A stretch of DNA of 8,647 bases from a virus (Duplodnaviria; Heunggongvirae; Uroviricota; Caudoviricetes). The DNA lies in IMG/VR virus record IMGVR_UViG_2703718835_000006, positions 1 through 8,647 of that record. One strand, given 5' to 3'. Each line of letters begins with the position of its first letter. The first letter of the stretch is position 1. Below the pieces are notes generated by a model. The model ran no database searches and was not told the origin of the DNA. It saw nothing but the letters and a program-made list of their open reading frames with translations. Position numbers and translations under genes: made by a program. Below are positions 2,439 to 3,361 of the stretch, one piece after another.

Positions 2439-2888
2439 TTACGCATACTCCATAACAATAACCACACCCGCAGAGCCATTACCGCCATTAACGTTTTGAT
2501 TTCCACTGATTGTTGCCGCGCCATTACCACCCGCACCATACCCACCAGGGCCAGAAATAAAGCTGCCGCCGCCAAGACCGGAACCTACAGTCCCTCCGAC
2601 TGCTGTTGGGGTTGCCATCACACCGGTTAGCCCGGCGTACCCGTTGCACAAAATGGCACCCACGGTCGAAGTGCCACCCTGACCGCCCATGCCACATGAC
2701 GCAGAGGAGCCTGACGCAGTGCAGCCGTTGCCTGGCTGGCCTCCACTTGCTGAGAGATAAGAGCCAAAAGTCGTCGTACCACCCTGCGTGCCATTGGTCA
2801 TCGTCGAGGCAATACCGCCATTACCACCCGCACCAATCGTGACAAGCACGGTTGATATTGCAGACAGGTTAAAGAGACCCCGTGCCAT
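2439..2888 (-). CDS. Tail fibre protein, C-terminal Gly/Ser/Thr-rich distal part (frameshifted fragment, 149 aa from ATG 2888)
   Basis: Low-complexity Gly-rich ORF (MARGLFNLSAISTVLVTIGAGGNGG...GNQNVNGGNGSAGVVIVMEYA) immediately upstream of tfa, in a different frame from the N-terminal fragment, with the break at the G11 tract. Probably not an independent gene. Confidence 0.65.
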   Translation of the reverse strand: MARGLFNLSAISTVLVTIGAGGNGGIASTMTNGTQGGTTTFGSYLSASGGQPGNGCTASGSSASCGMGGQGGTSTVGAILCNGYAGLTGVMATPTAVGGTVGSGLGGGSFISGPGGYGAGGNGAATISGNQNVNGGNGSAGVVIVMEYA

Positions 2889-3361
2889 TCCGCCGCCACC
2901 GCCCCCCCCCCCGCTGCGTTATAGTTTCCTGTGGAAGTTGCCCGGCCGCCGCCTCCACCGCCCCCAATAGCGATGACATCCGCGAACATTGCTCCGGGGG
3001 TTTTGGTGTAAGTGCCAGACGTCTTGATTATCTGCATGCCAATCAGACGACCGACTGCGCCGTTATTTACTAAACCAAGGTTTGTGAGAGCCGTAGAAAT
3101 CGCCGCTGCACCATCTGATTTGATATCGGCAAATGGGTTTGCACGGCTCAGTGTGAGTTTTTGAATGGCTTTTAAAACCTGAGTCATATCGTTAATGTCG
3201 AGCGCCAATCCTGCTGACTCTACGATATGCGCTAACTCTTCCTGCATGGCATTAAACGCTGCTGCCCGCAGCCTCGTTGCGGCAATACCACCAGCAACAC
3301 TTCCATCAGTATATTTGCCATCCTGCGTTGCAGTGGCTTCGACTTGCCCGATTCGGAGCAT
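2798..3361 (-). CDS. Tail fibre protein, N-terminal baseplate-proximal part (frameshifted fragment, 187 aa)
   Basis: ATG at 3359-3361 preceded by GAGG; lies between the DUF2313 gene and tfa, as the fibre gene does in Mu/e14-type modules. It runs into a poly-Gly stretch and then the G11 homopolymer; the last 38 codons overlap the C-terminal fragment out of frame. The intact gene would be about 307 aa (2439..3361). Confidence 0.7.
   Translation of the reverse strand: MLRIGQVEATATQDGKYTDGSVAGGIAATRLRAAAFNAMQEELAHIVESAGLALDINDMTQVLKAIQKLTLSRANPFADIKSDGAAAISTALTNLGLVNNGAVGRLIGMQIIKTSGTYTKTPGAMFADVIAIGGGGGGGRATSTGNYNAAGGGAVAAEWHGVSLTCLQYQPCLSRLVRVVMAVLPRR
2902..2912. repeat. Homopolymeric tract C11 (G11 on the coding strand) at the tail-fibre frameshift point
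   Basis: Counted directly: 11 consecutive C at 2902-2912. Translation shows that 12 G (or 9) would fuse the two fibre ORFs into one frame, giving ...AAGGGGGGGGMARGLF... Confidence 0.85.

Follow-up and report, generated by a model that had tools for sequence, protein, structure and literature searches.

A tail-fibre gene broken at a mononucleotide G run within the receptor-binding domain of an invertible prophage segment

Introduction

Phase variation through simple-sequence repeats (SSRs) is established in bacteria, with homopolymeric tracts described in Bordetella, Neisseria, Haemophilus, and Campylobacter (PMC1891110, PMC5084427). Repeat-driven variation in phage genes has been described only recently, in Campylobacter phages and in T2/T4. 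According to the account in PMC10877375, which cites Sorensen et al. (2021, Cell Rep 35:109214), Campylobacter (Fletchervirus) phages carry hypermutable polyG tracts in receptor-binding genes. In coliphages T2 and T4, contingency loci were reported in which SSRs undergo reversible frameshifts via polymerase slippage (Gomez, Barrick & Waters, bioRxiv 10.1101/2025.10.21.683753).

In this current study, a stretch of prophage DNA of 8,647 nucleotides (positions 1 to 8,647 of IMG/VR record IMGVR_UViG_2703718835_000006; hereafter, the window) was analyzed. In the window, the tail-fibre gene of a Mu-type tail module is broken at an 11-nt G run. We report the position of this run within the fibre and within the invertible segment to which the fibre tip belongs, the run lengths found among relatives, and the explanations that these data favor.

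Results

The window was found to derive, by exact match, from contig LONV01000007.1 of the 2016 draft whole-genome shotgun (WGS) assembly GCA_001576295.1 of E. coli G186; on this contig, yciI, tonB, and yciA come next after the invertase. The features of the window are listed in Table 1. The gene directly upstream of the fibre encodes a gp48/YmfQ baseplate protein, and the fibre thus belongs to the Mu-type tail module. The remaining genes of this module in the window were all intact and 99.8% identical to those of relatives. In complete E. coli genomes, the same module was found at the same chromosomal site within a full-length prophage having lambdoid early genes and a Mu-like tail. Many members of the fibre family (P0001, P0040, P0052, P0063, and P0076, among others) are named 'carbohydrate kinase' in public records. 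This name looks like a misannotation, presumably arising from the Gly-rich motifs; the members match Gly_rich_2 and occupy fibre positions in tail modules.

Table 1. Features of the window, in window coordinates
Feature	Position	Strand	Remarks
Pin-like serine DNA invertase	1..549	-	Resolvase and HTH_7 domains; Pfam E = 5e-39 and 2e-9
Invertase-side crossover site	609..634		TTATAAAAAAGG-TT-GCTTTAAGATGG; core 621-622
Invertible segment, about 2.46 kb	623..3076		Cargo: fibre tip, chaperone, acyltransferase
Acyl_transf_3 acyltransferase	773..1918	+	Segment cargo, in the usual place of a second fibre tip
Tail-fibre assembly chaperone, Caudo_TAP	2046..2438	-	Intact; identical protein on 135 contigs
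Tail-fibre gene, broken by -1 length variant	2439..3361	-	307 aa when repaired
Downstream reading frame, remainder of Gly_rich_2 domain	2439..2918	-	Called as ORFs of 149, 136, and 120 aa
Upstream reading frame, 187 aa	2798..3361	-	Annotated WP_249509238.1 in E. coli G186
G11 mononucleotide run	2902..2912	-	One base short of the in-frame G12 allele
Fibre-side 26-bp crossover site, Hin/Gin/Pin type	3065..3090		ATTTACTAAACC-AA-GGTTTGTGAGAG; core 3077-3078, codon L95
Mu gp48/YmfQ baseplate protein	3413..4006	-	Directly upstream of fibre
Baseplate J/gp47		-	Mu-type tail module
gp46	5147-5584	-	
gp45	5581-6165	-	
gpP-like protein	6162-7247	-	
DNA-circularisation/N-like protein	7244-8611	-	

On the strand presented, the run reads as C11 and corresponds to G11 on the coding strand. 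It is the sole G/C run of at least 8 nt within the window, and a run of this length arose in 0 of 200 dinucleotide-preserving shuffles of the window. The original prediction that the fibre reading frame changes at this run was confirmed by the ORF map. The upstream ORF begins with an ATG at 3361, passes across the run, and ends at a stop at 2798-2800; the downstream frame is open from 2918 to a stop at 2439-2441. The two frames overlap in 2798-2918 alone, and the run sits within that overlap, where it spans the third base of codon A150, codons G151-G153, and one more G. The 187-aa product is the intact fibre up to aa 153 followed by a 34-aa out-of-frame tail; that is, the G11 form cuts the fibre after residue 153, with the loss of about three quarters of the receptor-binding domain. 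Addition of one G at the run restored an uninterrupted 307-aa protein, as had also been predicted, and natural G12 alleles (L012/L032, L014/L017, L033, L044, and L045) encode that very fibre. Intact 307-aa fibres with the same N-terminus were also present in L043 (run ERR14026068), L046 (run ERR13331191), and P0157.

In the repaired fibre, a Gly_rich_2 receptor-binding domain comes after an N-terminus resembling that of Mu gpS. The N-terminus matched Mu tail fibre protein S, with profile positions 33-131 aligned to residues 41-143 of 5yvq/8ju3 (E = 4e-7). It had been proposed that the run lies between the N-terminal part and the Gly-rich part of the fibre and that it encodes a poly-Gly linker; both proposals proved wrong. 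The run is located 55 codons into the variable part, within Gly_rich_2, where it contributes codons to a conserved motif of eight glycines (Gly8, aa 151-158). Residues 115-303 of the repaired fibre matched Pfam Gly_rich_2 (PF21722) as one domain (40.3 bits versus a cutoff of 24.3), and the match covered profile positions 3-223 of 226. When 47 family members were aligned, G154 and G157 were found to be invariant or nearly so. Moreover, an AlphaFold2 model of P0001 (a G12 fibre that is 93% identical to the repaired window fibre) gave mean pLDDT values of 97 and 91 over residues 151-170, and the family profile aligned with the solved fibre of cyanophage Pam3 (PDB 7yfw/7ypx) over both Gly motifs (7yfw, E = 2.8e-10). 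The domain span, the conservation, the confidence of the model, and the Pam3 alignment together rule out a linker at this position; the Gly8 stretch belongs to a domain whose fold is predicted with confidence, and it is conserved there as a motif.

A generic inverted-repeat search for crossover sites yielded nothing useful because the sites were too degenerate, and the sites were located by a motif search combined with comparison of flipped copies. The motif AAACC-AA-GGTTT at 3072-3083 forms the centre of the fibre-side 26-bp site. Homology to relatives with other fibre tips ends at window positions 3072-3090, and flipped copies in the P2-like prophages L001 and L003 show exact reciprocal half-site joints. 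Both orientations of the segment exist in nature: L045 is inverted relative to the window, and L001, L003, L036, L037, and L039 (all P2-like prophages with the flipped segment) are inverted relative to L004, L005, L033, and L034. The end of homology, the Pin-type site at the same position, and the reciprocal joints place the constant/variable junction at codon 95, and they rule out the run, which lies 165 nt inside the segment, as that junction. The idea that the break coincides with a Mu-type constant/variable junction thus did not hold, and annotation should locate the segment junction at 3077/3078 rather than at the run. The break is an ordinary homopolymer frameshift inside the receptor-binding domain, whether by a slip in repeat length or by a miscount, and not a designed junction.

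At the DNA level, the invertase shares 99.7% identity with the corresponding region of phage HK225. The segment was found to contain one fibre tip and one chaperone, and not two alternative tips with their chaperones; the gene on its other arm is that of an LPS-type modifying enzyme, the acyltransferase. In P2-like relatives, a family-9 glycosyltransferase (GT9) is located in the position of the acyltransferase, and L028 has the classical two-tip form. A promoter and terminator scan of window positions 1-3500 gave nothing above shuffles.

Several further observations concern the contents of the segment and the ORFs at its ends. Inversion would give the fibre ORF a stop 29 codons beyond the crossover (after ALRWAWSPPHHQSGTRWERTAAEWGISLSS), and the acyltransferase would then sit 64 nt downstream, codirectional with the tail operon. 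In the flipped state, a chimeric ORF of 218-227 aa is predicted, in which window positions 605-622 are joined to 3076 downwards and which spans the whole Gly-rich tip. Its start lies beside the invertase and reads MVIKKV..., or MMPV... in P2-like prophages. Such chimeric ORFs are common in public assemblies (L045 5167-5823; P0159, P0016, P0021, P0022, and P0025), and they recall the chimeric StfE2, which arises from inversion of the e14 P segment and has been reported to block T2 adsorption (PMC12529663). A 73-aa ORF (window 565-786, + strand) crosses the invertase-side site into the start of the acyltransferase. It may be spurious, and several assemblies annotate it as a gene (e.g., L016 7864-8085); its N-terminal portion is encoded outside the segment and its C-terminal portion within it, so that inversion would alter it. 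Insertion sequences were also seen in relatives: IS1 lies within the acyltransferase gene of Citrobacter RHBSTW-00903 (L012 11654-12157), another IS1 lies between fibre and chaperone (L023 4502-5199), and a DDE transposase adjoins the invertase in L040 (4851-5819).

At least five constant N-termini, unrelated to one another, were found fused to the same tip (window 2439-3076; P0001-P0026), the joint being the ...NLGL|VNNG... crossover. These include Mu-like and P2 tail-collar types, among others, and give fibres of 307 to 562 aa. Across these fusions, tip identity was about 88-97% at the protein level, and nucleotide identity between copies ranged from about 88% to more than 99%. As judged from these sequences, the fibre tip acts like a freely exchanged cassette.

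Run length was then compared among relatives. In one set of 24 independent assemblies (E. coli chromosomes, IMG/VR contigs, and ENA and Logan assemblies), the tract was interrupted, GGGTGG(T/C)GGTGG, and read as GGGTGGTGGTGG or GGGTGGCGGTGG. All 24 of these tracts were 12 nt long, and none of the genes was broken at the tract; in L035, the fibre gene had been left uncalled, yet it translates intact. A pure G run was present in 8 independent assemblies whose cassettes are at least 99% identical, with lengths of 11, 12 (five assemblies), 13, and 15. G12, which is in frame, was found in Citrobacter sp. RHBSTW-00903 (a complete genome), Citrobacter sp. wls829, E. coli GCA_049543855.1, and the Logan assemblies ERR10017008 (L044) and SRR26665204 (L045). 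The G11 run of E. coli G186 is out of frame by -1, and the G13 run of ENA scaffold ERZ28616769 is out of frame by +1 and gives a product of 168 aa. The G15 run of E. coli GCA_904810385.1 is again in frame, with one extra Gly. Accordingly, G12 and G15 yield an intact product, whereas G11 (187 aa) and G13 (168 aa) yield truncated ones. Within this pure-G sub-lineage (8 assemblies), the four run lengths were accompanied by 8 substitution sites in the 1033 nt of fibre tip and chaperone. A second +1 product, P0167, came from another assembly with the same backbone and was not identical in sequence to the G13 allele; it was seen as a protein only, from which we infer a run of the G13 type.

Length variants thus made up 3 of 8 pure-G alleles versus 0 of 24 interrupted alleles (Fisher p = 0.011, with a small pure-G sample of 8 or 9). 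A length of 15 (+3) is atypical of base-calling error, and the +1-frame allele occurs in two distinct sequences; on these sequence grounds, the length variation at the repeat as such is probably real. The pure homopolymer is the minority state, found in 8-9 of about 33 assemblies, and the repeat is not maintained across the family, the tract being interrupted in the other 24. No pure G run was found in 5426 complete E. coli genomes (0/5426). Pattern scans of genome and metagenome contigs returned one chance match (L008) and one interrupted allele (L009). When the out-of-frame tail was used as a query for further -1 alleles, the only matches were a fragment at the end of a contig and an alternative-frame ORF that proved spurious. 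P0122, grouped by clustering with the truncated product, was rejected as a -1 allele; it shares the common constant N-terminus only and has a different tip. Several public contigs (P0175, P0177, and P0182, whose proteins are flagged as partial) start a few codons past the Gly run, and a C-terminal fragment of 120-149 aa is called as a complete ORF in several assemblies (the list includes P0142, P0143, and P0176). These partial and fragment records may represent additional alleles, either pure-G or out of frame, or else places where the assembly broke at the run.

The same prophage as in the window was found in L045, a Logan assembly in which the stretch 621-3078 is inverted and the run is G12. 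Over the 2459-nt segment, L045 differs from the window in orientation and in having G12 for G11 only, and about 4 kb of flanking sequence contains 2 SNPs. This near-identity implies that the G11 change is either very recent or an artefact. The exact 187-aa truncated product was found on one contig only, that of GCA_001576295.1.

With regard to the origin of the run, the usual codon stretch is GGG-T-GG-T/C-GG-T-GG. In one sub-lineage, three third positions are G, giving a perfect G12 that still encodes Gly8; by comparison of these sequences, the homopolymer is a derived, rare allele. The sub-lineage also carries linked SNPs at 2915, 2945, and 2954. When pure-G alleles were compared with their nearest interrupted relatives, 7 or 8 differences were found to cluster in about 100 nt (2904-2999), with at most two differences in the other ~860 nt of tip and chaperone. 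The upstream part is most like the L004-type allele, and the downstream part is like the L001-type, a pattern that suggests a recombination joint in or beside the Gly codon repeat. The pure-G cassette was found on at least four backbones: two Mu-like types, a 'MHRIDT' type, and a P2-like type.

Discussion

The explanation that we favor, with moderate confidence, is that the run is a slippage-prone, recently evolved mononucleotide repeat in the receptor-binding domain of an invertible fibre tip, and that the window carries the -1 form, which switches the fibre off. That the DNA of E. coli G186 itself harbors a real -1 slip is considered probable to a similar degree. The sequence of events would have begun with the change of three third positions to G in a sub-lineage, creating a perfect G12 run with a modal working length of 12. 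Strand slippage during replication, in either the lysogen or the phage, would then have produced the -1 variant. This variant would represent a stochastic OFF state, reversible in principle, in addition to the Pin inversion by which the same tip is already switched; virions from a G11 copy would be without a working tip until a +1 slip restored G12. The locus displays the structural hallmarks of SSR phase variation, namely, a repeat of at least about 8 units in an ORF, length polymorphism with constant flanks, and a reading frame turned on or off by length. The repeat may nonetheless be a mere mutational liability rather than a selected switch. The original prediction had left the choice among sequence error, inactivating mutation, and slipped-strand variation. 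Slipped-strand length variation has gained from the finding of lengths 11, 12, 13, and 15 in near-identical cassettes, and for this particular record an error has to be weighed alongside it.

Such an error would be a miscount in sequencing or assembly, the strain truly having G12 and an intact 307-aa fibre and the draft having dropped one G. We regard this as a tentative but sizable possibility, given that the source is a 2016 draft WGS contig (LONV01000007.1), that the G11 product is confined to that one assembly, that the near-identical prophage L045 has G12, and that the rest of the module is intact; the contigs of P0175, P0177, and P0182, which begin just past the Gly run, also hint at assembler trouble. 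On the other hand, the lengths of 13 and 15 found elsewhere, together with the second +1-frame allele (seen as a protein only), argue for real variation at the repeat, and short-read consensus calls of G11-G12 runs are usually reliable. Were the G11 only a miscount, no biological weight would be left for this record. A very different possibility is that G11 is the working gene and that the full-length fibre is made by programmed recoding, through either a -1 ribosomal slip or insertion of a G by RNA polymerase. From the sequence, a ribosome slipping by -1 on the GGG codons would regain perfect pairing and produce the exact wild-type 307-aa sequence. However, homologues are in frame, most of them lacking any run, and G11 is confined to a single assembly. 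Folding of the 92 nt downstream was no more stable than that of shuffles (MFE of -25.1 kcal/mol versus a shuffle average of -27.0; z = 0.64; 141 of 200 shuffles folded at least as well), and the truncated product ends inside a folded domain and so would have no plausible separate role. Recoding is thus highly improbable, and the earlier suggestion that frameshifting controls the presence of the distal domain found no support, the homologues mostly being in frame without a slippery run and no stimulatory structure having been found.

The question also arises of whether the run has been selected as a contingency locus, with synonymous GGT-to-GGG changes favored because the resulting hypermutable run would serve as a bet-hedging switch of the tip beside Pin inversion. 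Consistent with this, a 12-nt stretch contains three third-position changes to G, while the rest of the cassette diverges from its closest relatives by ~1%; lengths of both the ON and the OFF kind are seen; and the G-run allele has spread, uninterrupted, to at least four phage backbones. Precedents also exist in Campylobacter phages, as recounted in PMC10877375, and in T2/T4 (bioRxiv 10.1101/2025.10.21.683753). Yet the homopolymer is rare, with 8-9 carriers among about 33 assemblies and none among 5426 complete E. coli genomes, and this rarity argues against a conserved, selected switch. Moreover, the changes sit in the ~100-nt SNP patch (2904-2999), which has a recombinational look, and an OFF fibre would mean a dead-end virion with no alternative product and no evident use. 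We therefore consider selection for the run unlikely. It is likewise doubtful that display of the tip is under two layers of stochastic control, with slipped-strand switching at the G run added to Pin inversion of the 2.46-kb segment, and that the cassette takes this behavior along as it passes among temperate phages of E. coli and Citrobacter with Mu-like or P2-like backbones.

A slippage-prone repeat, as favored here, would make this fibre a natural case, from enterobacterial prophages, of a receptor-binding gene in which three synonymous changes produced a hypermutable run and for which both ON and OFF lengths exist in nature. With temperate coliphage cassettes that undergo inversion as well, one could conveniently ask whether such runs are put to use or simply tolerated. 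For annotation, the fibre should be entered as a frameshifted gene at a length-variable homopolymer.

Among known systems, the Fletchervirus phages, as described in the source cited above, resemble this locus in having a G homopolymer in a receptor-binding or fibre gene, the length of which sets the frame. They differ in that they are lytic, in that their host shows pervasive polyG variation, and in that both switching and phenotype were measured; the window, in contrast, represents a temperate enterobacterial prophage cassette with a rare, derived run seen in sequence comparisons. The T2/T4 loci are similar in that simple-sequence repeats in phage genes lead to frameshifts, but these were shown experimentally in lytic T-even phages and in genes such as agt and rIIA, whereas the evidence for the window consists of comparative lengths among assemblies. 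Bacterial SSR phase variation likewise involves a mononucleotide run in an ORF, polymorphic in length among close relatives, that turns the frame on or off; the difference is that the host of the window is E. coli or Citrobacter and that the length differences are those between assemblies. In E. coli and Citrobacter, mismatch repair is intact. With the Pam3 fibre, the window fibre shares a distal domain above the Pfam PF21722 cutoff and both aligned Gly motifs, although the relation is distant (E of about 3e-10 with the family profile). A further comparison is with the invertible segments Mu G (Gin), P1 C (Cin), and e14 P (Pin). As in these, a serine invertase adjoins the segment, 26-bp inverted sites are present, one of them in the fibre gene, a constant fibre N-terminus is joined to a variable tip with its chaperone, and both orientations occur in nature. 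Unlike these, the window has a single set of tip and chaperone, the second being replaced by an acyltransferase (GT9 in relatives), and its G run, located within the segment, does not belong to the apparatus of inversion. In all tested respects but one, the single tip, the element in the window is a member of the Gin/Cin/Pin family of invertible fibre segments.
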